Notes under the pieces: model-generated
Database searches by the model: none
What the model saw: only the letters and a program-made list of their open reading frames with translations
Told to the model about the DNA's origin: nothing
Origin: Candidatus Aenigmatarchaeota archaeon
GTDB lineage: Archaea; Aenigmatarchaeota; Aenigmatarchaeia; QMZP01; QMZT01
DNA length: 64,000 nt
Assembly (NCBI GenBank): GCA_016932735.1
Contig: JAFGCI010000006.1
Location: 36,167 to 100,166 of the forward strand
Direction of reading: 5' to 3'
Shown: piece by piece, positions 8,385 through 56,141 of the stretch
Layout of the letters: each line of letters opens with the position of its first letter
Numbering within the stretch: position 1 is the stretch's first letter
Made by a program: the position numbers and the translations under genes

Positions 8385-8816
8385 TTGAATATTAGAGACG
8401 ACTTTATGGATTCAGTAACATTGACCATAGGAGACCTTAAAAGCGGTGATAATAAAACATGGAACTATCCAAGGTTTCAGCTCAACCTTACAAATGAAGA
8501 CGCGGAAACCCTCAGTCAGCCGCTTCATGAGAACTTCAGAATACATCTCAAATTTCCGCATGGAAAGATAACCGATGAAAAGGGCAACGAATACGAAGAT
8601 GGTTTCTTTACTACAAGACTTGTAAAAGATCATCCCGGAAGATTCGGCAGAAATATTGTTTATGCCATATGCGCTGTCTGGGAATCAAGAAAGAGCAGGG
8701 ACGGACTTCTCACCGGCTGGCTCAAAAGCCATAAACTTAAAGCAGGAGATAAAGTAAAAATCAGCCTTGAGGGCAACAACTATTATTTGGAACCAAGCTC
8801 TATTTGCAATTATTGA
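8385..8816 (+). CDS. hypothetical protein (143 aa)
   Basis: ORF only. Confidence 0.45.
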   Translation: MNIRDDFMDSVTLTIGDLKSGDNKTWNYPRFQLNLTNEDAETLSQPLHENFRIHLKFPHGKITDEKGNEYEDGFFTTRLVKDHPGRFGRNIVYAICAVWESRKSRDGLLTGWLKSHKLKAGDKVKISLEGNNYYLEPSSICNY

Positions 8817-9483
8817 TATTGGCTTTCATAACATTAAATGTGATTGTTGCCATATCCTGTAAAGATATTGATCTTGGAGATGATAAACCACCTATTTTTG
8901 TCTGTATTCTTATATCAAATCTCAAGAATTTACCTTGGTGTGCAAATGGACATCTTGATTCATCATAAACATGTCCAATAGCCTTTCTAAACTCAGTCAA
9001 ATATTCATTGATATCATTATATCCTTCTGTTCTGTATGTAGTCTTTTCTACTCCGTTTTTAACTACTGTTTTGAACTTCATGAATCCGGGAATAATATTT
9101 AGCGTCTTATAGGTATCAACAATTATATTAATGAAATTCTTTCGGGGACCATAAGTTTCTCTGTATATTATATGCCACTTTTCTATTATTTTTCTTGGTT
9201 CATCGGTTTCCTTAATTTCTTTTATGAAATTATCAAAATCTCCCATATTAGAAACCCAATAATCAAATGTCTTGTATTCTTCATAGTTCCTTTTTGCAGC
9301 AATTGATTCTATTACAGTACAGAGAAGTAGCATTCCGATTTCTAAATGTTCATTTTTAATGTTGTCAAGAGCTTGTTCAAACAAATAGCACATCCTCTTC
9401 CCGAAATTATCAGTTTCGTCTATAGTTTCTATAAATTCAGAGAATTCTGAAACCACCTGTTTAAATTTATCAGATTCAATCAT
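8800..9483 (-). CDS. hypothetical protein (227 aa), AT-rich
   Basis: ORF convergent with the 8385..8816 ORF, with a 17-nt overlap. It is markedly more AT-rich than its neighbours. Confidence 0.45.
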   Translation of the reverse strand: MIESDKFKQVVSEFSEFIETIDETDNFGKRMCYLFEQALDNIKNEHLEIGMLLLCTVIESIAAKRNYEEYKTFDYWVSNMGDFDNFIKEIKETDEPRKIIEKWHIIYRETYGPRKNFINIIVDTYKTLNIIPGFMKFKTVVKNGVEKTTYRTEGYNDINEYLTEFRKAIGHVYDESRCPFAHQGKFLRFDIRIQTKIGGLSSPRSISLQDMATITFNVMKANINNCK

Positions 9484-12411: not shown

Positions 12412-12516
12412 AATGGAATATATGTTCCATAATTTATTTAAATCTAACACGAAATGGAACTATTGTCCATATTTTATGGAATATGTTTATCTAATATACC
12501 GGATAATAACCTTCTC

Positions 12517-13047
12517 ATGTTCAGACTGCACCCGGAACAGGGTTATGTTCATGAGATTGCGGGCACGTATGAAATCAAGACTGATATGAGGTATCATACA
12601 GTTCCGACCAAAACATGCGACGAGAAGGCAGCCTTGCTGGGCTGGCCTTCCAGCCGTGTCGTTAAAGCACTTTATCTTTGTGATGGGAATGGTTATATTG
12701 GTTTAGTGACGCCTGAAACAGGACAGCCTATAGACTTCAGGGCTGTTCTCGCTGAAGGCCTCGGGATCACAAAGAACAAGGCAGGCAGATACAGGTTCAA
12801 CGGAACCCCGGCGGGAATGACATACGGGACCTGCACCCCTTTCATACTTGAATCAAGCGCGGGAAAACAGGTTTCTAAAATAATCATTGCCGACCCGTTC
12901 AGCCTGAAAGATACTGTTGTTGACATATCCGTCGGCGGGGAAACCGATGATGCATTCCTGACATCCATGCACATTCCATACGATGCCATACATGAGATAC
13001 TTTACAGGAAGTTCGGAGAGGGTTTTGTGAAAAAACAAGAGCAGTAA
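12517..13047 (+). CDS. YbaK/ProX-like aminoacyl-tRNA deacylase domain protein (tentative)
   Basis: Pattern resembles YbaK ('GTPAGMTYGTCTPF', 'IIIADPFS', 'DISVGGETD'). Start uncertain; the ORF track begins at 12454. Confidence 0.45.
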   Translation: MFRLHPEQGYVHEIAGTYEIKTDMRYHTVPTKTCDEKAALLGWPSSRVVKALYLCDGNGYIGLVTPETGQPIDFRAVLAEGLGITKNKAGRYRFNGTPAGMTYGTCTPFILESSAGKQVSKIIIADPFSLKDTVVDISVGGETDDAFLTSMHIPYDAIHEILYRKFGEGFVKKQEQ

Positions 13048-15960: not shown

Positions 15961-16647
15961 ATGAATATCGGGGGGTTTGTCAAGAACACGCTAATAGACT
16001 ATCCGGGAAAGATGTCGTGCATCATATTCACACAGGGATGTTCTTTCCGCTGTCCCTTCTGCCAGAACAAAGAGCTGGTTGACGTCCCCGATGATGCAGA
16101 ATCCATAAAGGAGTCATACATCTTTTCATTTCTCAAAAAAAGAAAAGGCTTGCTTGATGCGGTTGTAATAACCGGAGGAGAGCCGACACTTCAAAAAGAC
16201 CTTCCCGATTTCATAAGGAAAGTCAGGGAGCTTGGATTTCTCATCAAGCTCGATACCAACGGATGGGCTCCTGAAATTCTTGAAAGGTTGTTAAAAGAGA
16301 ACCTAATCGATTTTGTTGCAATGGACATCAAGGCTTCAAAGGATAATTATGAGAAGGCGGCAGGCGTCAAAGTAAATATATATAATATAGAGAAGTCAAT
16401 CCGCCTTATACGTTCATCAGGACTCCCATACGAATTCAGGACGACTGTCGTCCCCGGAATCCACGATAAAGACGACATCAGGAAAATGGCTCAGTGGATT
16501 GAAGGCTCAAACCTCTTCCTGCAGAAGTTCGTCCCTCAGAACACGCTTGACCCCGAATACGAAAAGAAGAATCCATTCACTAACAAGGAAATGGAAGAGA
16601 TGAAAAAGATTGCGGGGCAGTTTGTGAATTGTGGGCTGAGAGCTTAA
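15961..16647 (+). CDS. nrdG: anaerobic RNR activating enzyme NrdG (radical SAM)
   Basis: The 'GCSFRCPFCQN' CxxxCxxC cluster and 'VVITGGEPTLQ'. An alternative GTG start at 15952 overlaps the stop of the preceding small ORF. Confidence 0.8.
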   Translation: MNIGGFVKNTLIDYPGKMSCIIFTQGCSFRCPFCQNKELVDVPDDAESIKESYIFSFLKKRKGLLDAVVITGGEPTLQKDLPDFIRKVRELGFLIKLDTNGWAPEILERLLKENLIDFVAMDIKASKDNYEKAAGVKVNIYNIEKSIRLIRSSGLPYEFRTTVVPGIHDKDDIRKMAQWIEGSNLFLQKFVPQNTLDPEYEKKNPFTNKEMEEMKKIAGQFVNCGLRA

Positions 16648-16751
16648 TGTTCGCTTTCTGCCCGAATAGGGCGCAAATAACGAATAAAATTCGTTAAATA
16701 GTTGTTTTTCTCAATAGATTTTTCACTACTGGCTCTTGCTTCAATTGGTTA

Positions 16752-16765
16752 GGAAAACGGGGGGG
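16752..16765. repeat. left inverted repeat aaaacGGGGGGGGG (G9 homopolymer) of cassette 1
   Basis: Perfect reverse complement of 19299-19312. A second shared 12-mer (tagatttttcac, about 16716-16727) lies about 30 nt outside. Confidence 0.7.
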
Positions 16766-16810
16766 GGAGCTATAATACTATTTTATAAATAATGTTTTCA
16801 ATTTTGGAAT

Positions 16811-17683
16811 ATGCCGAAAAGAAATATGTTGTGGATTTCATTTGCTGTCATTTTTTTGATTTCATTTAGTGGGTGTATCCAACAAAACACGAAAGAAAAT
16901 GCAGAATCAATCGCACAGGAATTTGCTATAAATTTACAAAAATCAGACTATGAAAGCTTATATGATTTATTCATACCTGATCTCAAAAGCATGAGAAAAA
17001 AATCAGATTTCGTTAAATATGTGAATATAAAAGGATCGCCACTTGATAACAATTATATAATTTTTGACAAAGTCGTAATGCAGGGAGATAATGAAGCTTA
17101 TGCATATTATACGTTATCAAGTGGCATATTTGAGGCTAAAGTTCCTCCTATGCATTTGATTTTTACGTCGGAAGGTTGGCGTGTTGACGCATTTTCAGAT
17201 TACTTTTCTGCTGGATGCATCATAGATGATGACTGTTCAGCAGATTATCCTCGGTGTAGCAAAAATTTAGAATGTGTAAAATGTGTAAGTGATGCAGATT
17301 GCTCCGATTCGGGAAAGAAGCATTGTGATAGTGTTCTTAATATCTGTCATGAATGTATAGAAGATTACCATTGTCCCAAAGATAAACCAATATGCTATGG
17401 GTTTAGTTGTATTGAATGTAGGAAAAATTCAGATTGCCCAACAGAAACTCCATATTGTAATTATGTGTTAGGCAGTGGTTATGTTTGCAATAATAATCCT
17501 ACCGGGATAGAATGTATAGAGGATGTAGATTGTATCGTACTTTATGGAACAAAAAAGATGTATTGTAATGCGAATGGAAAGTATATTAGATTTACTCACG
17601 AGGATGAATGCATTTATTGCAGAGACGAATCAGACTGTCCTAGAGGAAAAGATTATTGCATTTCAGGTGAATTCTGTGTCTAA
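16811..17683 (+). CDS. putative lipoprotein with C-terminal cysteine-rich repeats
   Basis: Signal and lipobox-like 'FLISFSGC'. The C-terminal half has four 'C-x2-C-x3-5-DC-x5-8-C' repeats (e.g. CVKCVSDADCSDSGKKHC, CIECRKNSDCPTETPYC). Confidence 0.6.
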   Translation: MPKRNMLWISFAVIFLISFSGCIQQNTKENAESIAQEFAINLQKSDYESLYDLFIPDLKSMRKKSDFVKYVNIKGSPLDNNYIIFDKVVMQGDNEAYAYYTLSSGIFEAKVPPMHLIFTSEGWRVDAFSDYFSAGCIIDDDCSADYPRCSKNLECVKCVSDADCSDSGKKHCDSVLNICHECIEDYHCPKDKPICYGFSCIECRKNSDCPTETPYCNYVLGSGYVCNNNPTGIECIEDVDCIVLYGTKKMYCNANGKYIRFTHEDECIYCRDESDCPRGKDYCISGEFCV

Positions 17684-18104
17684 ACTTGGATATAGTGAAG
17701 ATGATAAAAGAAAACACCTTGAGTTTATTCAGTTGGCTATAAACAGAATGGCGGCTAATTCATTTATCCTAAAAGGTTGGAATATTACACTTGTTGTAGG
17801 TCTATTTGCTGTTTCAATAACAAAAAACCAAAATCTTTTTTTAATACTTGCTTTATTACCGGCCATTGCTTTCTGGGGTTTGGATTCATATTATCTGAGA
17901 AAAGAAAAACTGTTTCGTGAACTGTATAACTTTGTAAGGATGAGAGATAAGAGTCTAATAGATCCTTATTCATTGGAGACAAAGGAATTTGAGAAAAATA
18001 TCAAAAGTTGGTTTCATATACTATTTTCACGAACCGTGATAGTATTACATGGCCCCATAATTATATTTATTTTATGTTTTTCTATGATTCTATGGGGTGG
18101 TTAA
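17676..18104 (+). CDS. small 2-3 TM membrane protein (SLATT-like candidate effector), partner of the TIR-like protein
   Basis: It has an N-terminal amphipathic helix (DDKRKHLEFIQLAINRMAANSF). Three hydrophobic segments follow: 'WNITLVVGLFAVSI', 'LFLILALLPAIAFWGL' and C-terminal 'VIVLHGPIIIFILCFSMILWGG'. The stop TAA at 18102-18104 lies 2 nt before the TIR start. Start uncertain (GTG 17676 or ATG 17748). Confidence 0.5.
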   Translation: MSKLGYSEDDKRKHLEFIQLAINRMAANSFILKGWNITLVVGLFAVSITKNQNLFLILALLPAIAFWGLDSYYLRKEKLFRELYNFVRMRDKSLIDPYSLETKEFEKNIKSWFHILFSRTVIVLHGPIIIFILCFSMILWGG

Positions 18105-18106
18105 AT

Positions 18107-18598
18107 ATGGCAAGAAAAGTATTTTTCAGTTTTCATTATGAAAAGGATGCATGGAGAGCTGGACAGGTTAGAAATAGTAATGTCGTGCGTTCAGAAGATA
18201 CTACTGGATTCATAGATGCATCTGAATGGGAGAAAGTTAAAGAGAGAGGACAAGATGCAATTAAGAACTGGATTAATGAACAATTAAAAGGTACTTCGAT
18301 CACAGTAGTTCTAATTGGAAGTGAAACATCTGAAAGGGATTGGGTTAAATACGAACTTCAGAGAAGTTATGAAAAAGGAAATGCCTTTTTGGGGATATTC
18401 ATACATAATCTTGAAGATCAAGAAAAAAGAACAACGTCAAAGGGGGATACCCGATTTGGTGAATTAGGAAAAGATTCTGAAGGTAAATCTGTCTATTTAT
18501 TCCAACTCGCTAAGTTTTACGATTGGAAAAATGATGATGGTTACAACAATTTTACAAAATGGATTGAAGAAGCTATCTCAAACCAAAATGGAAACTAA
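18107..18598 (+). CDS. TIR-like domain protein (DUF1863 / ThsB-like)
   Basis: 'MARKVFFSFHYEKDAWRAGQVRN...ITVVLIGSETSERDWVKYELQRSYEKGNAFLGIFIH' carries the FFSFHY-x-D signature and the 'VLIGSET..R.WV.YE' pattern of Thoeris ThsB-type TIR domains. 163 aa from ATG 18107. Confidence 0.75.
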   Translation: MARKVFFSFHYEKDAWRAGQVRNSNVVRSEDTTGFIDASEWEKVKERGQDAIKNWINEQLKGTSITVVLIGSETSERDWVKYELQRSYEKGNAFLGIFIHNLEDQEKRTTSKGDTRFGELGKDSEGKSVYLFQLAKFYDWKNDDGYNNFTKWIEEAISNQNGN

Positions 18599-18975
18599 CT
18601 CTTCTTATACCCAAACTTCTTCTCATAATCCCTGTGGTTCATGATATCTAATATCAAAGAAATAATCTCGACTTCGTTGCCTCTTATAGTATATATCATT
18701 CTCCATGCTCCCGAAAGGTTGATTTTCCACAGGTTGTTTACATCATAATTTTTGATATATTCTTTTGGTGTTCTGTCTTTCGGGATATGAATTCCATATT
18801 GCGGGTTATCTCTTAACAACTCGATTTTCTGTTTAATAGAGTTAAGAAGCGTTTGGTGGTCACTGTTAGTAATACCCTTGGAAATCTCTTCGCCTACGAG
18901 TTTGTTCAAATCATCAAACTCTTCTTTAGCTTCTCCGGTAATAATGACTTTGGTGATCTTTCCTTTGAACATCAC
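18595..18975 (-). CDS. RelE/ParE-family type II toxin
   Basis: C-terminal 'NLWKINLSGAWRMIYTIRGNEVEIISLILDIMNHRDY' matches the RelE/YoeB-fold pattern. A 4-nt ATGA overlap links it to the upstream ORF. Confidence 0.7.
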   Translation of the reverse strand: MMFKGKITKVIITGEAKEEFDDLNKLVGEEISKGITNSDHQTLLNSIKQKIELLRDNPQYGIHIPKDRTPKEYIKNYDVNNLWKINLSGAWRMIYTIRGNEVEIISLILDIMNHRDYEKKFGYKKS

Positions 18976-19244
18976 AACTCAACTCCCTCTTTTATCGCCT
19001 TGTCAAGTTTCGGGCTGGGATTGTATATCCATAAAATTCCTTTCCTGCCGTCAATTATTTTACCGCTGTTCTCTAAATAGCTTAATATGACATTCAGCGT
19101 TTGGTGCATTATTTTTACAGGCAGTTTTTTCTTTATATCTTCCCGTGTCATTAATTCATTTGATTCCTTTAGAACTTCTTCTACCATTAACACAGTCTTC
19201 AGATTCGGGTAATGAATGACCTCGGCTTTTTGCATACAAAACAC
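18972..19244 (-). CDS. putative cognate antitoxin (90 aa)
   Basis: Upstream of the RelE-like gene on the minus strand and overlapping it by 4 nt. No antitoxin family recognised. Confidence 0.45.
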   Translation of the reverse strand: MFCMQKAEVIHYPNLKTVLMVEEVLKESNELMTREDIKKKLPVKIMHQTLNVILSYLENSGKIIDGRKGILWIYNPSPKLDKAIKEGVEL

Positions 19245-19298
19245 CTTGTATAAACTTATATAATATTATATATAGAAATATATAAACTTTTGCTTTCG

Positions 19299-19312
19299 CC
19301 CCCCCCCGTTTT
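19299..19312. repeat. right inverted repeat CCCCCCCCCgtttt (C9) of cassette 1
   Basis: Perfect reverse complement of 16752-16765. The 12-mer gtgaaaaatcta at 19343-19354 is the reverse complement of tagatttttcac at about 16716-16727. Confidence 0.7.
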
Positions 19313-19634
19313 CAATAACTTTGCGAGTTGGTTAGCTGTGAAGTGAAAAATCTACTCTCGCCTTCGGCTCGGTTTCCCTGCGGTCAACGAGAAAAACAGG
19401 AAATATGCGGGAAAACTATACAAAGTTGTTGAATTTTCCCCAAATTTCAGCTTCGCTGAAACTATCGCATATTTCCATCGGTTATGCTCAATTGCGAATC
19501 CGCCTCTGGCGAGGTTACCATAGAAAATTCTCTTGTTGTTGCCTTCGTTAAAATTCACAAAACGAAAAAATAACGAAATTGCTTTGCAAATCGTCTAACA
19601 AAATTTTAACGAAATTTTTTCTTATCTTTAACAA

Positions 19635-19645
19635 GGGTTGCCGCC
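19635..19645. repeat. inverted repeat gggttgccgcc (preceded by ttttttctt) bounding cassette 2
   Basis: Reverse complement of ggcggcaaccc at 20990-21000, which is followed by aaaagaaaaaa. Confidence 0.6.
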
Positions 19646-19646
19646 T

Positions 19647-20468
19647 TTACTTATCTTTCTCAATCAATACAAATAACATTAGAAGAAGCATAGTAGACCT
19701 TTGTTCATTATCATAGTTAATCTCTCTTCCATGTAAAATTGGGTGTCTGAAATCCTTTGAATAAACATTACTTTTAGTATGCTCGCCGAATTTTGAAGAA
19801 TTATTAAAAATTTTTATAATTAGTTCTCCCAGCGAACATTCTATTGGTTTTCCATTTTTCCCTAAAATTAAATTCCCTTTAACATCTATCAGATTTTTGC
19901 TATTAAATTTATTCTCGATTAATCCTTGATTAATTCCAATATCCCAAAGTATACCTTCAATTTGCGATAACAAAAGAGGAATAGAGCTTATATAATCCTT
20001 ATTTTTATGATGCTGAATAGCCTTTTCTAAAATCTTTTCTCTTGCTTTAATAATCTTATCCGTTCTTACCTTTGAAATCAATTCATTCAATAACTTGTCA
20101 TCTTCAAAATCAGATATTAGTTGTTTCCATACTTCTTCTTTTCCGCTCGCTTTAAGCTTATCCTTGAGTTCAGAAGCGTAAGACATTGATATTGCTTCAA
20201 TCCACCCAAATTCTTTAAGAAATTCTTCCCAGCCTTTGAAATCAAAATTTTTTGCTATCTCAGTAAGAGGTTTTAATGATTGTGCAATTGATTGAGATAG
20301 TAATTGCATTCTTTTAAATGGTTCAGTAAGTGCTTCCATTTGTGCCTGAAATTGCAGATTGAATAATTGAATTGGTGCCAGAGAAATAGAAATTTTATCA
20401 TGAAGTTCTTTCATTATTTTGTTTATTTGATCCAGATTATTCATTTGTATCATCTTCAAGTTCTTCAT
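19647..20468 (-). CDS. hypothetical protein with C-terminal HEPN-like Rx4H motif (candidate Abi-like nuclease)
   Basis: 273 aa, AT-rich. 'SKDFRHPILHGREI' fits R-x4-H. Lies 18 nt downstream of the SHOCT gene on the same strand. Confidence 0.45.
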   Translation of the reverse strand: MKNLKMIQMNNLDQINKIMKELHDKISISLAPIQLFNLQFQAQMEALTEPFKRMQLLSQSIAQSLKPLTEIAKNFDFKGWEEFLKEFGWIEAISMSYASELKDKLKASGKEEVWKQLISDFEDDKLLNELISKVRTDKIIKAREKILEKAIQHHKNKDYISSIPLLLSQIEGILWDIGINQGLIENKFNSKNLIDVKGNLILGKNGKPIECSLGELIIKIFNNSSKFGEHTKSNVYSKDFRHPILHGREINYDNEQRSTMLLLMLFVLIEKDK

Positions 20469-20486
20469 TGTCCATTTAAGACAGAA

Positions 20487-20942
20487 TTATAATCCAAGCA
20501 ATTTTTTCTTTTTTTGCTCAAATTCTTTTTGAGTTATAACTCCTTTCTTCATTAAACTATATAATTTCTCTATCTCATCTGCATCGCTAGAAGTAGATTT
20601 TTCTGAAGAACTATTTGCTTTCTCAATGTGTTCTTTTATTTCAAGAGCCTTTTCGTAATTATCTTTACCATTGAACGAAACCGTATTTTCATCACTTACT
20701 GCATTAAAAACGCCACCTCTAGCCTCAATACCTCCTGGCAAGGAAAATTGAATATATCCTGCGGTAAACCCTGGTTTTTTAATCTGAATTGAGGTTATAT
20801 TTTTGAAGTAAATATCTTTCTTTCCTTTTAACCCATGAATCATGAAACCCATTGCTGTTCCTCTATCTAGCCTAACAAATTTTTCATAAAGTTCTATTCT
20901 TCCATTTGTTCCTTTGAATTCAATTATTGGTTTTTGTTCCAT
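20487..20942 (-). CDS. SHOCT-domain protein with N-terminal bPH/DUF4429-like domain
   Basis: C-terminal 'EIEKLYSLMKKGVITQKEFEQKKKKLLGL' is a typical SHOCT motif. Start set at the internal MEQKPIIEF. Confidence 0.6.
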   Translation of the reverse strand: MEQKPIIEFKGTNGRIELYEKFVRLDRGTAMGFMIHGLKGKKDIYFKNITSIQIKKPGFTAGYIQFSLPGGIEARGGVFNAVSDENTVSFNGKDNYEKALEIKEHIEKANSSSEKSTSSDADEIEKLYSLMKKGVITQKEFEQKKKKLLGL

Positions 20943-20989
20943 GATAACACTATTATATCTAAGGAATTTATAAATTCTTCTAATTGAAC

Positions 20990-21000
20990 GGCGGCAACCC
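20990..21000. repeat. inverted repeat ggcggcaaccc (partner of 19635-19645)
   Basis: See the partner repeat. Confidence 0.6.
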
Positions 21001-21251
21001 CCAAAAGAAAAAACTACGGCAACAACGAATTTTCGGCGGACTCGCAACTCGAAATTTTTGCCTTCGGCATTGTTGCACTAAAATTTCGTCCTAACGGAGA
21101 GCATAACAGGGCTTAACCGACTACGAAACCTTGCAGGTTTCTCCGACCCAAATTTTTTCTTCAGCTCTGTTCCGCTTCGCTCCACGAGGAAGAAAAAACT
21201 TCCCTTAAGCCCGATGTTATACGCAGTTTCTATAACTAAAAAACAAGTCTC

Positions 21252-21371
21252 TACATCAAATCAACAAAGCTCGACCTTCCTTCGCCTGCAATCTTCTTCT
21301 CCTTCTTCTTCGGCTTTTTCAGGTAAGACATTCTTGTCTTGACCTTCTTGGTGGAAGTTGGCGCTTTCATA
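21252..21371 (-). CDS. small basic ORF (39 aa, MKAPTSTKKVKTRMSYLKKPKKKEKKIAGEGRSSFVDLM)
   Basis: Hand translation of the minus strand. Lys-rich; could be a small ribosomal or nucleic-acid-binding protein, or spurious. Confidence 0.2.
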
Positions 21372-21463
21372 TCCAATAATTAGCATTAAGATTAAAAACA
21401 GTTTTGCATGAAAACAACGCCCAAATTTAAATATTCTTCCTGACAATAGGTATTGATATAAAT

Positions 21464-21673
21464 GGGCTCGTAGCTCAGCCTGGTGAGGCTTTAAGCCTTT
21501 AGGCAATTAGAGCACCAGACTCTTAAACCCAGGATATGCCGAATTTCCTTCTGGAAATGATGACTTGGAGATATCTGGGGGTCGCGGGTTCGAAACGGTA
21601 TTTGCAAAGTAATTTGTAAATGTGTTTCATGATGCACCATGCATCAGTTGCCGGTGAAATCCCGTCGAGCCCA
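21464..21673 (+). tRNA. tRNA-Lys (anticodon CTT) with three putative introns
   Basis: Exon 1 is GGGCTCGTAGCTCAGCCTGGT (21464-21484). Exon 2 is AGAGCACCAGACTCTTAA (21509-21526). Exon 3 is TCTGGGGGTCGCGGGTTCGAA (21574-21594). Exon 4 is TCCCGTCGAGCCCA (21660-21673). Spliced, they give a 74-nt cloverleaf with a 7-bp acceptor stem, D-stem GCTC/GAGC, anticodon stem CCAGA/TCTGG, loop CTCTTAA and T-arm GCGGG/TTCGAAT/CCCGT. The introns are about 24 nt (D-loop 20/21), about 47 nt (37/38) and about 65 nt (T-loop 59/60). Confidence 0.55.
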
Positions 21674-21676
21674 TTT

Positions 21677-22315
21677 TTATTTATCAGGAAGCCTGTTTCT
21701 TGTATTCCTTTCTACCTGCTTCTTGTAGCCGTAATCGACTTTCTTTGCTGTTGCGAAAAGGGCCGCCGGTATAGCGAATATTCCGATTGCGCTTTTCCAC
21801 GCGGCTTCCTGAACGGTTTTGGGCGGTTCTTTTAAGAAATAATTGGCCGTTGCCCCGACTGCGGCAGCTTCTGCAATCATGCCGGCTGGGTGCAAAATCC
21901 TTCTGGATGTGGTTTTGAACTTCCTCCTCACATGCTGTCCAAATCTTCTGAAATGGCTGTCATAATTGAAATTGCTCCTTCCTGTAATCCTCTTCCTGCT
22001 CTCGCTGTAATTGAAATACACGCGTCCCGTCTTGCCTGAGTCGTTGTTTGTGACGTAAGCAACACCATCATAAGAATCCGTTTTGTTGGTTCTTGCCCTG
22101 AATTTTTTATCTCCTGTAGCTATTTCTATAGTGCCAATACTGTAATCAACGCCAATCTTTCGTCTTGGGACAAGGCTGTTCCTTAGTTTGGTATAAATTG
22201 CAGAATGCTGATATCCTTTTAACCTGCTGGTTTGCTTCTTCGGGTCAAGATATACACTCTTCATTATTTCACCAATTACGAGTATTTTGTCACCAAATCT
22301 TATAAAACTAACCAC
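21677..22315 (-). CDS. hypothetical protein (212 aa)
   Basis: The ORF ends 4 nt downstream of the tRNA-Lys 3' end. Confidence 0.45.
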   Translation of the reverse strand: MVSFIRFGDKILVIGEIMKSVYLDPKKQTSRLKGYQHSAIYTKLRNSLVPRRKIGVDYSIGTIEIATGDKKFRARTNKTDSYDGVAYVTNNDSGKTGRVYFNYSESRKRITGRSNFNYDSHFRRFGQHVRRKFKTTSRRILHPAGMIAEAAAVGATANYFLKEPPKTVQEAAWKSAIGIFAIPAALFATAKKVDYGYKKQVERNTRNRLPDK

Positions 22316-22341
22316 TATAGAATGATAATTGGTGTGGTTTT

Positions 22342-22737
22342 ATGGCAGAGCTGTATTTGCATAAGATTCCTGCAGGAACAAGCAAAAGGATAGGCGGTGT
22401 AGTTTATTCTTTTAAAAAAGATTTTGTGATTCAAAGCACTTCAAGGAACATTGCTCAATCCCCGGGAAGCCCCCATTACGCGCGCTTCACCTTGGAGTCG
22501 GGAACCGTCATAGATGCGACAGGAAGAATCCCTGAAGATTGCCATGTTTATGTTACAGGGAAGGTGTTTGAAACATATAGAAGGCTTAGCAAAAAGAAGA
22601 AGAGGGCCGGAGAGAGTCCGTTTAAGATGGGTAATGAAGAAAGGATGGACTTAATGGAACTCTCTGAAATCGTCAACGAGGAGAAAGTCCGTAAAAAACC
22701 CGGAATCTGGAGATTGTTTCCGGTTATCGATTTCTGA
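22342..22737 (+). CDS. hypothetical protein (131 aa)
   Basis: ORF only. Confidence 0.4.
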   Translation: MAELYLHKIPAGTSKRIGGVVYSFKKDFVIQSTSRNIAQSPGSPHYARFTLESGTVIDATGRIPEDCHVYVTGKVFETYRRLSKKKKRAGESPFKMGNEERMDLMELSEIVNEEKVRKKPGIWRLFPVIDF

Positions 22738-35618: not shown

Positions 35619-36195
35619 TATGAAAGATAAAGACCTTGTCAACCTGATTTTCGAATGGGGCCACCTCAGGAAGATAAAGCATGAAGGCTTCCGCTATCTC
35701 GGTGTATCGGACCCGGAGAGCGTCGCCGAGCATAACCTGCACGCAGCACAGATAGCTTATGTTATTGCCAAGATGGAAAAATACAAAAATCCTCTTGAAG
35801 TCGTCGCCATATCAGTATTCCATGAAATAGGAGAATCGAGAATAGGCGATGTTCACAGGATAGGAGACCGATACATAACAAAGGATGAGGAGAGAGCCGT
35901 AAGAGACCAGCTTGAGAAGTTCGATTTCAAAAATGAAATCCTGAAACTTTGGGAGCAGTCTGAGAATCGTTCAACGAAGGCCGGTAACATCGCGAAGGAT
36001 GCAGACCTTCTCCAGACATGCTTTGTCATCAGGGAGCTTCAGGAGCACGGCCATAATACAGGAGACTGGATTGAGAACACAAGGAAATACCTGAAGACAG
36101 AATCAGCAAAGAGTCTTCTTGATGCGCTTGAAAAGACCAGTCCATTGGATTGGATGAAAGACCTAAAGACTTTCAGAAACCTCGAGAAAAAATAG
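35619..36195 (+). CDS. HD-domain phosphohydrolase (YfbR-like 5'-deoxynucleotidase)
   Basis: 'HNLHAAQIAYVIA...VFHEIGESRIGDVHR' H...HD...D motif set. Start uncertain (the ORF is open from 35542). Confidence 0.65.
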
Positions 36196-43476: not shown

Positions 43477-44046
43477 TCAATTCTTCTGATGCTTTTCGGG
43501 GTCCTCTCTTCCCCACGGTTCTTTTGATCCATTATCTCCTGTTCTTATGATCCTAACATGAACATATATTGCATCTAAATCGGCTGGCGTTTCGTTACCT
43601 TTGAGCTTCCGTGTATACATTCTTCCCTCTTCAATCCTGCCTCCCCTGACTGTTATTTCATATCCATGCTTCAAAGGGTATGTCGCTCTATCGAAAAGTT
43701 TTCTACCTAACATCATTGTCGTTATTCTCTTTGGATCTATTATATCTCCTTCCCTGCATACATATCCTACCGAATCGTCAATTTCGCAGGAAACTGATGA
43801 AGTTGAGCCTTGATGCATGAATCTTTTTGATGATTCGGTATCAATTCCATTATAATCAAGAATTGATATTACCGGTATTGTTACTTCTCTTTTTTCACCT
43901 TCACTAAAAAATCCTGCCTGATATGTCTTTTTTCTTCTGGGAGAATTAGGATCCACAGAAAGGTTTGTATATAAAGAAGGAAAACTCAAGACTCCCTGAC
44001 CTATTATTGAAAAACCTGAATCTTCTTTTGTGTAATCATCAATCAT
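43477..44046 (-). CDS. hypothetical protein (189 aa)
   Basis: ORF only. Confidence 0.4.
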   Translation of the reverse strand: MIDDYTKEDSGFSIIGQGVLSFPSLYTNLSVDPNSPRRKKTYQAGFFSEGEKREVTIPVISILDYNGIDTESSKRFMHQGSTSSVSCEIDDSVGYVCREGDIIDPKRITTMMLGRKLFDRATYPLKHGYEITVRGGRIEEGRMYTRKLKGNETPADLDAIYVHVRIIRTGDNGSKEPWGREDPEKHQKN

Positions 44047-45744: not shown

Positions 45745-46119
45745 ATGGTAATATTGGAAAGACCTATTTCCTATAATCTTACAAAAACGCAGTATATGGA
45801 TGCACTCTTAATTTCAGGATATAGACATAATCTACCACAAGATGAGGTTGACTTGCTTCTAGAAACTTTATTAGGAGATAAAAATGTTCAGGGCTTCATA
45901 ACAAGAACAGATGATTTATGGAATTTCAGATATGTCAGGACTCATAGAACTGAACCAAAGAATGCTGTAAATAATGATAAAGTTTGTGGAAATGCCGTAG
46001 CTTCAATAACAGAAAAATATATAGCGAAAAAGGGATTAAAAAAAGAGCTTTCAGCCACATACAAGACAGCGAAAGACAGGGATTTTCCCGCGTCTTTACC
46101 GATAAGAAGGAGAAGATGA
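45745..46119 (+). CDS. hypothetical protein (124 aa)
   Basis: ORF only. Confidence 0.35.
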   Translation: MVILERPISYNLTKTQYMDALLISGYRHNLPQDEVDLLLETLLGDKNVQGFITRTDDLWNFRYVRTHRTEPKNAVNNDKVCGNAVASITEKYIAKKGLKKELSATYKTAKDRDFPASLPIRRRR

Positions 46120-52557: not shown

Positions 52558-53604
52558 TCAATTTTGACCCCATTCAAACAATCTCATTATGAACTCATCT
52601 GGTTTCTTTTCCCTTTGGTACGCAGTTTCGGCAAAACGCAGAAAGTTTTCAACCTGTTCGACTGGTCTTTCCATTATCTGATGCGTCCTATTAGAGATGT
52701 TAGTGACGAGGAAAGGCAAACTTGGAATTCCATACTTCCTTATAGATTTCTCTATCAATTGTCTTAAAATAGAATCATAATAACCTCTTTCGTGACCGTT
52801 TTCAAGGCTGTGAAGACCTCCTAAAACACTCTGTGTTACTTGGACTGTTCTGAACGGGCATTCAGATCGGGATATCTCTATGATTGAATCAAAATTAAGA
52901 TCTTCTGGCCTTACAAGTTGCTTTTTTCTGGAAATCCTTTTCTCTTGTCTGCTCTTATAAAGCAGCTTTTCTACCAGTTCCGGTCTTACACAAAACAATT
53001 CTCTGCTTTTGAAAGGCAATTTCTTATAATCGACGCCCTCTATTATTTCTCCTTTATCTCTCATATCTTTAAATCTTGTCGAAACTGTGTATGAGGATAT
53101 TCCTTTATCATCAAACGCCGGATCATGTAAATAAAGAGTCGCTACTGGATAGAAACCGTCAATTTCTTTCGGAGTTTTTAATTCATTCAGATTTTTCTTT
53201 ACAAGTTTGACTGTTTCTGGTGTATCTTTAACATAATCATATCTTCCTTCAGCATCAGTATACAGCTTCAAAAGGCCTTTCTGATAGAGAAGCCTTATCT
53301 TGGTCCTCGCCTGTGTTCTGGACATACCGGTTTTTTTTCCAAGCTCTCTACAGGACAGGAAACCATTTTCATGTGGAGCAGGTCTTGTTGATCTTGTTAC
53401 TGGGTAAGAAATAGAGTCAATATCATCAACGTTAATATACAACGACACTCCTCCATTTGGCCCCTTTCGGGGTATATTTATCCTATCAACGTGCAATTTT
53501 CTTTTGGCTATTCTCGAGACAAATACATCGTACGGTATGAATTTTTCTTCTGCTAATTGCCTAGCATTTACATATTTTTTGCCATCTATGAGTAGATATT
53601 CCAT
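52558..53604 (-). CDS. hypothetical protein (348 aa)
   Basis: ORF between dnaK and the DRG GTPase gene. Confidence 0.45.
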   Translation of the reverse strand: MEYLLIDGKKYVNARQLAEEKFIPYDVFVSRIAKRKLHVDRINIPRKGPNGGVSLYINVDDIDSISYPVTRSTRPAPHENGFLSCRELGKKTGMSRTQARTKIRLLYQKGLLKLYTDAEGRYDYVKDTPETVKLVKKNLNELKTPKEIDGFYPVATLYLHDPAFDDKGISSYTVSTRFKDMRDKGEIIEGVDYKKLPFKSRELFCVRPELVEKLLYKSRQEKRISRKKQLVRPEDLNFDSIIEISRSECPFRTVQVTQSVLGGLHSLENGHERGYYDSILRQLIEKSIRKYGIPSLPFLVTNISNRTHQIMERPVEQVENFLRFAETAYQREKKPDEFIMRLFEWGQN

Positions 53605-54821: not shown

Positions 54822-56141
54822 ATGTTTTTAAATCTAATACTACATAATAGTAGTATATTTATGAAGAGAGTATTCAGATATCTGAGAAATGGTATATTAG
54901 CCCTGACTTTGACAGCTGCAGCTGTAAAAAGTTACCACCTATCTGAATATGGGTCTTTCAGGAACCCAAAATACAGTATAATCCGGACAGATAATCAGAG
55001 CAAACCCTTTACATATTCTCAGATACTTTCTGATTATGAACAGTGTTTGGATAAAAGATTACTTGACTATGGTAACGGTAAAGAAATCTTCCTAAATAGA
55101 TGTAGACGCATAGAAGATACGAACAAGACCGTTAGAGATTCAATAAATTTCTCTTCAATAAATAACAGATTCTCATCTTTGTTAGGTTATCTAAAAAATT
55201 TTCCTAAGGATTCACTTGATATAATTTCCATTTCTAAATCACAGAAAAGGATGGAAGAATTCATAGACTCAATAAGTGCATTAGAATCTATAGAATACGA
55301 TCTCAAAGATCGCGCATCTATTGATAATTGGTTTAAAACAACCGCATCATGTCTTGATTCAGAGAAAGTGTGTGACTCAACGGTCCCTAATTCCGAGCTT
55401 ATAAAAGGAAATGCAAATCTTATTCAGAAAATGACAGGAAAGAATAAGCCAAGAAGTCTGTGCCAGATAATATCGGATAATAAAATACTTCTTAAGGGTG
55501 CATCAGGACGTTTTTATCCATTTCTTATTATATCAGGTACTTATAATGGTGAGAATGCTCATAAAGAAGAATATATAAGCGGAGCACTGGCACATGAAAC
55601 AGGTCACGCCTTGGCAAACCATCACGAGGGCAGAATATTAGATTTCATATTTAATGCAAAGAAAGTAAATGCAATGGAAGAGGCATGTGCATTTCTTTTT
55701 GAGAAATCTTCTTATGATTTTTTGGATGACGAATCAATTAAACCGTCTATTAAAAGGAACATCGTTAAAAAAACATTTCGACATTGTGATAATTTCTATC
55801 GCGATGATTCAAGACAACACCATGACTGGGGAATGGCTGTCGCAGACGCAACAGCAGAATATTTTGGAAGTTATCAAAAAGCATTCAATTACCTTCAGGA
55901 AACAAAAATGAGTGAGCTTGAACCGGGCATAATAGATATAATAGAGAGAAACAGGAGCAGATACAAAAGAATTCAGGAGAAGACGAGAAAGGATCCTTTC
56001 TTGGAACTGTTTGAATCGAGAAATGGGGAGATTCAGGAAATAAGACAGGATTTAGAAGAAATAAAACAAAAGTATTATGATTCTATCAAAAGATTTGGTT
56101 CACAAAGATTGGATAAAGAAAATGAGGAAAAGGATAATTAA
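54822..56141 (+). CDS. putative zinc metallopeptidase-like protein (HExxH) with N-terminal hydrophobic anchor
   Basis: 'GALAHETGHALANHHEG' contains HExxH. The N-terminus has 'GILALTLTAAAV'. Confidence 0.45.
   Translation: MFLNLILHNSSIFMKRVFRYLRNGILALTLTAAAVKSYHLSEYGSFRNPKYSIIRTDNQSKPFTYSQILSDYEQCLDKRLLDYGNGKEIFLNRCRRIEDTNKTVRDSINFSSINNRFSSLLGYLKNFPKDSLDIISISKSQKRMEEFIDSISALESIEYDLKDRASIDNWFKTTASCLDSEKVCDSTVPNSELIKGNANLIQKMTGKNKPRSLCQIISDNKILLKGASGRFYPFLIISGTYNGENAHKEEYISGALAHETGHALANHHEGRILDFIFNAKKVNAMEEACAFLFEKSSYDFLDDESIKPSIKRNIVKKTFRHCDNFYRDDSRQHHDWGMAVADATAEYFGSYQKAFNYLQETKMSELEPGIIDIIERNRSRYKRIQEKTRKDPFLELFESRNGEIQEIRQDLEEIKQKYYDSIKRFGSQRLDKENEEKDN

Follow-up and report, generated by a model that had tools for sequence, protein, structure and literature searches.

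A Variable, AT-Rich Islet with Putative Defence Genes between nrdG and the tRNA-Lys Promoter of an Aenigmatarchaeota Genome

Introduction

The question raised by the locus described here is whether an AT-rich island with several defence-type genes is the remnant of a single element that integrated at the neighbouring tRNA gene, or whether it was assembled from modules of different origin. The locus is part of contig JAFGCI010000006.1 (GenBank assembly GCA_016932735.1) of a Candidatus Aenigmatarchaeota archaeon. A stretch of 64,000 nucleotides (nt) of this contig was analyzed (positions 36,167 to 100,166, forward strand); it is called the window in the following, and coordinates refer to it unless a relative is named. 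A sequence-only reading of the window had placed an AT-rich accessory island, packed with defence-type modules, between nrdG and an intron-rich tRNA-Lys gene, and it had left the two explanations mentioned above. DPANN archaea have tiny genomes, in which recognizable defence systems are reported to occur at a low density and defence islands to be very rare; the Aenigmatarchaeota are among the more diverse DPANN phyla with respect to defence systems (PMC12259885). The results presented below favor the second explanation. The island is probably a strain-specific mosaic defence islet, composed of independently acquired low-GC modules at a hotspot of variable content, with nrdG on one side and the tRNA-Lys promoter on the other, and not one tRNA-targeting element.

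Results

Composition and Borders of the Island

The island was delimited as follows:

16729..21422, no strand: variable AT-rich island between nrdG and the tRNA-Lys promoter, defined by the breaks of homology with the two relatives L002 and L054 and by its composition

The GC content of the island was 0.339, compared with values of 0.469 (nrd operon) and 0.458 (RNA polymerase (RNAP) operon), and the AT-rich island of the sequence-only reading was thus confirmed against flanks of about 0.46. The windowed GC content was 0.30-0.36 over 16.5-21.5 kb and 0.44-0.50 on both flanks. The codon usage agreed with this. The GC content at third codon positions (GC3) was 0.23-0.26 in the island genes and 0.476±0.086 in the other 59 long open reading frames (ORFs) of the window, the RelE-like toxin gene with a GC3 of 0.45 being the exception among the island genes. 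The drop agrees with the earlier reading, which had proposed windowed GC and codon-usage plots as a check.

The seven genes of the island encode a lipoprotein, a protein with three transmembrane (TM) helices, a TIR protein, a candidate toxin, a putative antitoxin, a HEPN protein, and a DUF4429-SHOCT protein. In NCBI, 100%-identical entries for the island proteins are JW716_03880 to JW716_03910 of a Candidatus Aenigmarchaeota metagenome-assembled genome (MAG). The close relatives of the downstream RNAP subunit RpoB'' all stem from Aenigmarchaeota or Aenigmatarchaeota MAGs. The host is therefore a DPANN archaeon and not a euryarchaeon of the methanogen type, despite the split B subunit of its RNAP. 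None of the island ORFs contains an integrase, transposase, or recombinase domain according to scans with Pfam, NCBIfam, PHROGs, and PADLOC, and the earlier statement that integrase and transposase are missing was therefore borne out. Genes typical of the backbone of an element, such as those for a capsid or for replication, were also not found among the island ORFs in scans with family libraries.

Independent Logan contigs (run SRR13394437) match positions 16677-19249 and the sequence from 21196 onward at 100% identity. Because of this agreement the left junction and the tRNA junction are not products of the MAG assembly, and an assembly chimera is unlikely; the stretch 19250-21195 is supported by the MAG contig alone.

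Two non-coding regions of about 400 bp each, 19245-19646 and 21048-21422, are GC-richer than the island (0.375 and 0.419), and GCCTTCGGC-type hairpins occur in them. Structured RNAs at these positions were considered and rejected, because the Rfam hits were snoRNA noise with E-values of about 0.8 and the z-scores of the folds were -1.9 and -0.9.

The Island Is Missing from Two Close Relatives

The closest species-level relative is L002, the RpoB'' of which is 90% identical. Its gene order is nrdR-nrdD-nrdH-nrdG, 540 bp, a three-intron tRNA-Lys gene, and rpoH. The homology between L002 and the window is lost at about 16640-16728 and regained at 21423, i.e., at the tRNA promoter. A short conserved block, AAATAGTTGTT…CTA, follows nrdG in both and extends to 16728. 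The gap of 540 bp in L002 has a GC content of 0.306, its content is different, and it contains an unrelated ORF of 80 amino acids (aa). The second relative, L054, is 93% identical on the DNA level through nrdG and diverges from the window at 16728/9. The homology is regained at 19349-19447, with an alignment score of 60 versus 31.5±5.7 (maximum 48) for 200 shuffles. L054 was the one close relative found in a metagenome scan with NrdG; the remaining 79 matches were about 50% identical and uninformative.

Three genomes thus have three different cargos at one place, which shows that the site is a variable hotspot and that the island is accessory. The island was acquired horizontally: it has no counterpart in the two closest relatives and its composition is deviant. 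The accessory, acquired nature proposed from the sequence was hence supported, since the island is missing from L002 and L054, which keep the backbone of nrdG, tRNA-Lys, and rpoH. The question of synteny that the sequence-only reading had raised, i.e., whether nrdG and tRNA-Lys are direct neighbors elsewhere, was answered by L002, which has 540 bp of unrelated DNA instead of the island.

A Thoeris-Like Pair of a Three-TM Protein and a TIR Protein

Two of the island genes form a pair with strong matches to models of defence systems:

17676..18104, plus strand: three-TM membrane protein, 142 aa, JW716_03885, putative Thoeris-like effector (PADLOC model PDC-M50A, 1.6e-43)
18107..18598, plus strand: ThsB-type TIR protein, 163 aa, JW716_03890 (PF08937, PADLOC ThsB, PDC-M50B)

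The three-TM gene has a GTG start codon that overlaps the stop codon of the lipoprotein gene, and the start annotated by NCBI is identical. The match to PDC-M50A covers positions 3-131 of the 134 profile positions. The protein has three hydrophobic helices, and its AlphaFold2 model reached a predicted local distance difference test score (pLDDT) of 92.5. The sequence-only reading had described a membrane protein with two TM helices next to a TIR-like protein; the pair was retained, but three helices were counted. The family is large, with 5617 cluster representatives at E-values of 1e-3 or below, and it has no Pfam model. PF10028 (DUF2270) was matched weakly by 4 of 29 family members, and the island protein itself was below the DUF2270 threshold of Pfam. 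Named relatives with 55-60% identity include proteins of Pacearchaeota and Nanoarchaeota. Fusions of the three-TM domain with a SLOG (LD_cluster2) sensor domain and with an octameric membrane-protein domain (8xMP) were seen in two relatives, P0285 and P0366, and they support a role of the three-TM domain as a signal-gated membrane effector.

The TIR protein matched PF08937 (ThsB_TIR) with 1.9e-25 and 89.6 bits (cut-off 21.2), PADLOC ThsB with 5.1e-65, and PDC-M50B with 6.5e-59 (positions 1-159 of 162). It is 46% identical to ThsB of B. cereus MSX-D12 over the domain. The glutamate E83 of the motif RDWVKYELQ aligns with the glutamate of RRWVRYEIM in B. cereus ThsB (WV.YE motif), which we take to be the catalytic E85. 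At least 2793 homologues exist, the best of which are about 60% identical. The named relatives are all bacterial (Chitinophagales, Flavobacterium, Omnitrophica, Silvibacterium). In Flavihumibacter a 61%-identical TIR is part of a type I Thoeris system with a SIR2-STALD ThsA. The TIR is also 47% identical to a TIR labelled 'DUF2270 - Type V' (Table S1, Yirmiya et al. 2025).

The TIR gene starts 2 nt past the end of the three-TM gene, and both genes have the same orientation. In more than 15 loci that are unrelated to each other, the three-TM gene likewise precedes the TIR gene. This order was found next to GmrSD (L141), next to an NgoPII restriction-modification (R-M) system in an archaeal context (L145/146), between a methylase and HinfI on a Nanoarchaeota contig (L147), and in 12 of 24 IMG/VR contigs; the occurrence in IMG/VR shows only that the pair travels on mobile elements. 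The earlier claim of defence-type modules was therefore supported for this pair, which is a candidate system in PADLOC and adjoins R-M or GmrSD genes elsewhere.

Three known or proposed systems were compared with the pair. First, type V Thoeris, a system validated recently, consists of a ThsB TIR and ThsF, a DUF2270 protein with three TM helices, and is triggered by 3' cyclic ADP-ribose (3'cADPR); TIRs of this subfamily are also paired with SIR2-SLOG proteins (Yirmiya et al. 2025, bioRxiv 10.64898/2025.12.03.692087). The pair shares the two-gene operon with a ThsB-type TIR and a small three-TM effector. It differs in that the effector misses the DUF2270 threshold, the effector gene precedes the TIR gene, the host is a DPANN archaeon, and it is known here from its sequence. 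Next, both components of the PADLOC candidate PDC-M50 (PADLOC-DB v2.0.0) were matched over the full length by the adjacent, co-oriented genes. The last example was type I Thoeris of B. cereus MSX-D12, with which the pair shares the 46%-identical TIR including the glutamate motif; the islet lacks a SIR2-SLOG ThsA, and its effector is a membrane protein. Judged by these similarities, the most suitable interpretation of the pair is a Thoeris-like system that resembles type V.

The HEPN Protein and the SHOCT Protein

Two further genes are located in the right part of the island:

19647..20468, minus strand: HEPN-domain protein, ORF of 273 aa, JW716_03905 (265 aa, 19647-20444, with the start annotated by NCBI)
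20487..20942, minus strand: DUF4429 (PH-like) and SHOCT protein, 151 aa, JW716_03910 (PF09851, 2.2e-8; PF14472, 4.2e-7)

The HEPN protein was not matched on the sequence level by the HEPN models of Pfam, NCBIfam, or PADLOC. It was recognized by its structure and its motif: the C-terminal domain of the AlphaFold model is confident, it has the four-helix up-and-down fold of HEPN domains, and the Rx4-6H motif (R233-HPIL-H238) is invariant in 23 homologues. In total 25 homologues were found, none of which has any Pfam domain. In L139/L140 homologues are encoded inside a type I R-M operon, and thus the claim of defence-type modules was upheld also for this family. In L136 the homologue adjoins SbcCD-like genes and an integrase, and in L134 it adjoins an unrelated gene of 271 aa near an integrase. 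In contrast to known HEPN proteins, i.e., HEPN-MNT toxins, AbiV, the C-terminal domain of AbiA, and Csm6, the islet protein has an additional N-terminal region of about 130 aa. Unlike the HEPN-MNT toxins it has no MNT antitoxin as a partner, and the neighbors vary between loci.

The SHOCT protein matched PHROG 2700 with 1.3e-17. A 92%-identical SHOCT protein is encoded in L173, and the DNA homology is confined to the coding sequence of this protein. The sequence-only reading had regarded the SHOCT and HEPN-like proteins as a pair. The two genes are indeed adjacent, but a conserved pairing was rejected, because the HEPN homologues as well as the SHOCT homologue of L173 have other neighbors. As a side observation, three unrelated genes follow the SHOCT homologue in L173 (1010-2954), and one of them encodes an RNIVGH (Rx4H) motif, which hints at a recurrent, non-homologous association of SHOCT with HEPN-like proteins.

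A Putative Toxin-Antitoxin Pair

The toxin-antitoxin pair is convergent to the operon with the three-TM and TIR genes:

18595..18975, minus strand: candidate toxin of the RelE/ParE/YoeB superfamily, 126 aa, JW716_03895 (four weak concordant matches)
18972..19244, minus strand: putative antitoxin, 90 aa (gene order, overlap of 4 nt with the toxin gene)

The toxin matched ParE_toxin with 3e-4 and 21.7 bits (curated cut-off 23) and TIGR02385 (RelE_StbE) with 1e-5 and 25.8 bits (curated cut-off 27.9), in both cases below the cut-off. The match to the RelE-like PHROG was 2.4e-3, and a profile match to YoeB (8yxv) was 2.2e-3. For the antitoxin no family match was found in the Pfam and NCBIfam scans. 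As in type II systems of the RelE/ParE/YoeB kind, a small upstream gene overlaps the gene for a toxin of about 110-126 aa. The islet pair differs by an N-terminal extension of about 40 aa of the toxin and by an antitoxin outside the known families. The earlier call of a RelE toxin-antitoxin pair appears reasonable, with no more than moderate support.

Homologous antitoxin/toxin pairs were seen on two other Aenigmarchaeota contigs, L023 (1372-1970) and L037 (4293-4945), 3-5 kb upstream of rpoH. This position near rpoH may be a coincidence or may reflect a shared variable neighborhood.

The Cysteine-Rich Lipoprotein

The first gene of the island is the following:

16811..17683, plus strand: Cys-rich secreted lipoprotein, 290 aa, JW716_03880 (signal peptide, FSGC lipobox)

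The prediction of a Cys-rich lipoprotein was correct, as the protein has a signal peptide, an FSGC lipobox, and 25 cysteines, of which 24 are within residues 136-290, i.e., in the C-terminal half. A weak match to the Cys-rich repeat region of TraA was found (NF033759, 1.5e-8). The gene is probably co-transcribed with the three-TM and TIR genes. A role as a component of the TIR system was rejected: no lipoprotein homologue adjoins the TIR pair in the other loci compared, and thus the lipoprotein is a passenger or a local addition outside the conserved system.

Inverted Repeats around Two Cassettes

The sequence-only reading had noted two internal cassettes that are bounded by short inverted repeats, and the repeats proved to be real and non-random:

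16715..16767, plus strand: cassette 1, left arm of the inverted repeat (13-nt outer core at 16715-27, TTGGTTAG at 16745-52, inner core GAAAACGGGGGGGGG at 16753-67)
19299..19354, minus strand: cassette 1, right arm (inner core at 19299-313, TTGGTTAG at 19328-35, outer core at 19342-54)
19635..19645, plus strand: GC-rich 11-nt repeat, left arm GGGTTGCCGCC, directly 3' of the HEPN gene
20990..21000, plus strand: GC-rich 11-nt repeat, right arm GGCGGCAACCC, about 50 nt upstream of the SHOCT start

Cassette 2 is flanked by the GC-rich 11-nt pair (19635-45 and 20990-21000); GC-rich inverted repeats of 11 nt were obtained in none of 300 block shuffles. In cassette 1 the perfect 15-nt pair GAAAACGGGGGGGGG and the perfect 13-nt outer pair are embedded in imperfect arms of 53-56 nt, and the two copies of the 15-mer are its sole occurrences in the 64 kb. 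The 8-nt sequence TTGGTTAG is present as a direct repeat, once in each arm. Cassette 1 corresponds approximately to the segment that is missing from L054, which is homologous to the window on either side.

The pattern resembles that of a non-autonomous element. Cassette 1 (16715-19354), with the genes for the lipoprotein, the three-TM protein, the TIR protein, the toxin, and the antitoxin, might thus be a mobile cassette that is bounded by inverted repeats. It would have entered an intergenic region or an islet that was already present, with a transposase or recombinase supplied in trans from elsewhere. Several observations speak against this. No transposase or recombinase is encoded in the cassette or next to it, and a second copy of the arms was found neither in the window nor among the 173 loci that were fetched, the matches in IMG/VR being single and at chance level. 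TTGGTTAG abuts the left inner core, but a distance of 14 nt separates it from the right inner core, and it is enclosed by the outer cores; with this asymmetric, internal placement it does not look like a clean target-site duplication. The empty site of L054 contains a degenerate, single copy of the motif. Lastly, the inner cores are located 45-55 nt upstream of inward-facing start codons (the left one about 45 nt upstream of the ATG of the lipoprotein gene) and 5' of TATA-like stretches, so that a duplicated promoter or operator element is an alternative, and the arms could be just that. Altogether, a mobile cassette is regarded as unlikely. It would be compatible with the mosaic islet and would add a mechanism for one step of its assembly.

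A bolder version, which we consider quite doubtful, is that cassette 1 would be a hitherto undescribed DPANN cargo cassette, again non-autonomous, that moves the TIR/three-TM pair between genomes with the toxin-antitoxin pair as an 'anchor'. The G-run cores would then be recombination sites or shared operators that link the expression of both convergent operons. Two related ideas were rejected. The G-run 15-mer is not a recurrent element, as it is unique in the window and the fetched loci and its 26 single matches in IMG/VR look like chance. It is also not a conserved operator of the toxin-antitoxin family, as the promoters of the pairs in L023 and L037 have no G-run. In L054, the region 1013-1246, where it departs from the window, contains three copies of a G5 motif (GAAGGGGGCTTAGTG, AGAGGGGGCTTTTAGT, TAGAGGGGG) that are reminiscent of the G9 core of the inverted repeat in the window.

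An Improbable Alternative: Accessory DNA without an Immune Role

It was also considered that the island might be lineage-specific accessory DNA without an immune role, consisting of a lipoprotein for the surface or for host attachment together with addiction or stress modules. The AT-richness would then simply be a sign of genes that are young or under weak selection, as in other low-GC pockets of the genome. The abundance of surface proteins in DPANN genomes was counted in favor of this explanation, as were the other single low-GC3 genes without family match that are scattered over the window and the lack of a defence annotation for the lipoprotein and the SHOCT protein. It is nevertheless highly improbable, because the TIR and three-TM proteins match defence-specific models strongly and recur beside R-M and GmrSD genes, the TIR is similar to an experimentally characterized ThsB (46% identity, see above), and members of the HEPN family are encoded within a type I R-M operon at another locus.

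The tRNA-Lys Gene Is the Border and Not the Integration Site

The right border of the island is formed by the following features:

21423..21463, plus strand: promoter region of tRNA-Lys with a TTTAAATATT box, right edge of the island (85% identical to L002 7667-7724)
21464..21673, plus strand: tRNA-Lys(CUU) gene with three introns (spliced exons canonical in ARAGORN, exons conserved in L002)

The introns are located at about 21485-21507 (D-loop), 21527-21573 (anticodon loop), and 21595-21659 (T-loop, 59/60). The unspliced gene was not detected by ARAGORN or by Rfam at the gathering threshold. When the four exon pieces were joined, ARAGORN yielded a canonical tRNA-Lys(CTT) cloverleaf, and the intron-rich tRNA-Lys of the sequence-only reading was thereby verified. 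In L002 (7705-7943) the exons are conserved, and the introns in the D-loop and the anticodon loop are longer than and unrelated to those in the window; the L002 sequence is masked by N from the T-loop intron site on, including the 3' exon. According to the literature, disrupted tRNA genes are frequent in DPANN lineages (PMC5829648), and therefore a tRNA-Lys gene with three introns is expected for this lineage. The gene resembles the multi-intron tRNA genes known from DPANN and TACK archaea in that one tRNA combines introns at all three sites; the difference is that here the tRNA is the border of the island and not a member of it. A tRNA-Lys-like gene is also conserved directly upstream of rpoH, at a distance of a few hundred bp, across the Aenigmarchaeota (loci L004-L052). 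The spacing between exons 1 and 3 is often above 100 nt in these loci, indicating introns, and a second tRNA gene is often present just upstream.

The sequence-only reading had pointed to the tRNA gene as a possible integration site and had suggested a search for a partial 3' duplicate of it as an attachment (att) site. Integration at this gene was not supported. The island stops at 21422, on the promoter side of the gene, 41 nt 5' of it and upstream of the promoter, which L002 shares as a conserved feature. Partial copies of tRNA-Lys exons are absent from the island and from the 64-kb window, those of the 3' part as well as others. The region 21380-21720 has no above-chance match to 16400-21379, and the flanks of the two junctions do not share any exact direct repeat with a length of at least 8 nt. 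Together with the absence of an integrase, tRNA-Lys was hence rejected as an att site.

A single decayed provirus or plasmid that had integrated at tRNA-Lys and later lost its integrase would account for the proximity of the tRNA gene, the low GC content, a cargo of toxin-antitoxin and defence genes as it is common in integrated elements, and the three-TM/TIR pairs on IMG/VR contigs, but it is very improbable and largely refuted by the position of the island about 40 nt before the gene at a conserved promoter, the missing exon duplicate and direct repeat, the lack of integrase, capsid, replication, and other backbone genes, the unrelated distributions of the modules, and the absence of relatives of the HEPN protein and the lipoprotein from IMG/VR. 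The latter absence also led us to reject a viral origin.

Other Variable Spots in the Window

A second variable spot, with normal GC content, is located between tRNA-Lys and rpoH (21677-22737). It contains two lineage-specific genes without family match, one for a protein of 212 aa (minus strand) and one for a protein of 131 aa (plus strand). Of these two, only the former has a relative in L002, and this relative is partial. The distance between a YbaK-like gene and nrdR also varies, being 0.54 kb in the window (12493-13031) and 1.7 kb in L002 (1856-3554). In addition, single genes with a low GC3 of 0.26-0.32 are present at 8800-9483, 43477-44046, 45745-46119, 52558-53604, and 54822-56141, almost all of them without a Pfam family. 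These scattered genes are likely to be further small acquisitions.

Discussion

Taken together, each module of the island has its own relatives and its own neighbors elsewhere, and thus the island is a mosaic of modules with separate histories. Of the two alternatives left by the sequence-only reading, the recombination-assembled defence islet was retained and the decayed integrated element was dropped, on account of these differing relatives and neighbors.

Several points weigh against a mosaic defence islet. Two close relatives, L002 and L054, were available for comparison, and the sequence of L054 stops 234 nt past the breakpoint. The RelE assignment, which is moderately supported, did not reach the curated cut-off of any library. 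PDC-M50 is a candidate that was proposed computationally and for which no mechanism has been described, and no mention of it was found in the literature searched. The lipoprotein and the SHOCT protein had no defence match in Pfam or PADLOC, and an antiviral phenotype of the islet genes is predicted from their sequences. Lastly, a recombination hotspot as a simple model does not account for the inverted repeat of about 55 nt that encloses cassette 1.

If the mosaic islet indeed serves defence, its modules may act as follows. The TIR protein would sense infection and convert NAD+ to an ADP-ribose-derived signal. This signal is plausibly 3'cADPR, because TIRs of the subfamily pair with SIR2-SLOG ThsA and also with DUF2270 ThsF. 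It would activate the three-TM protein, which would then oligomerize and breach the membrane, resulting in abortive infection. The HEPN protein, judged by its fold and motif, might be an RNase of the abortive infection or toxin kind that becomes active upon infection or stress. The toxin-antitoxin pair may stabilize the cassette or arrest growth.

The results leave current concepts unchanged, and the biology is fairly ordinary. Two uncharacterized families without a Pfam model have been flagged, i.e., the very large family of three-TM effectors and the HEPN family. A Thoeris-like TIR pair has been placed in DPANN archaea, and the nearest named relatives of its TIR are bacterial. The hotspot adjoins conserved housekeeping operons, and three close relatives have three AT-rich cargos at this site. 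The locus is thus a clear and well-delimited example of the gain of putative immunity genes in a small DPANN genome.

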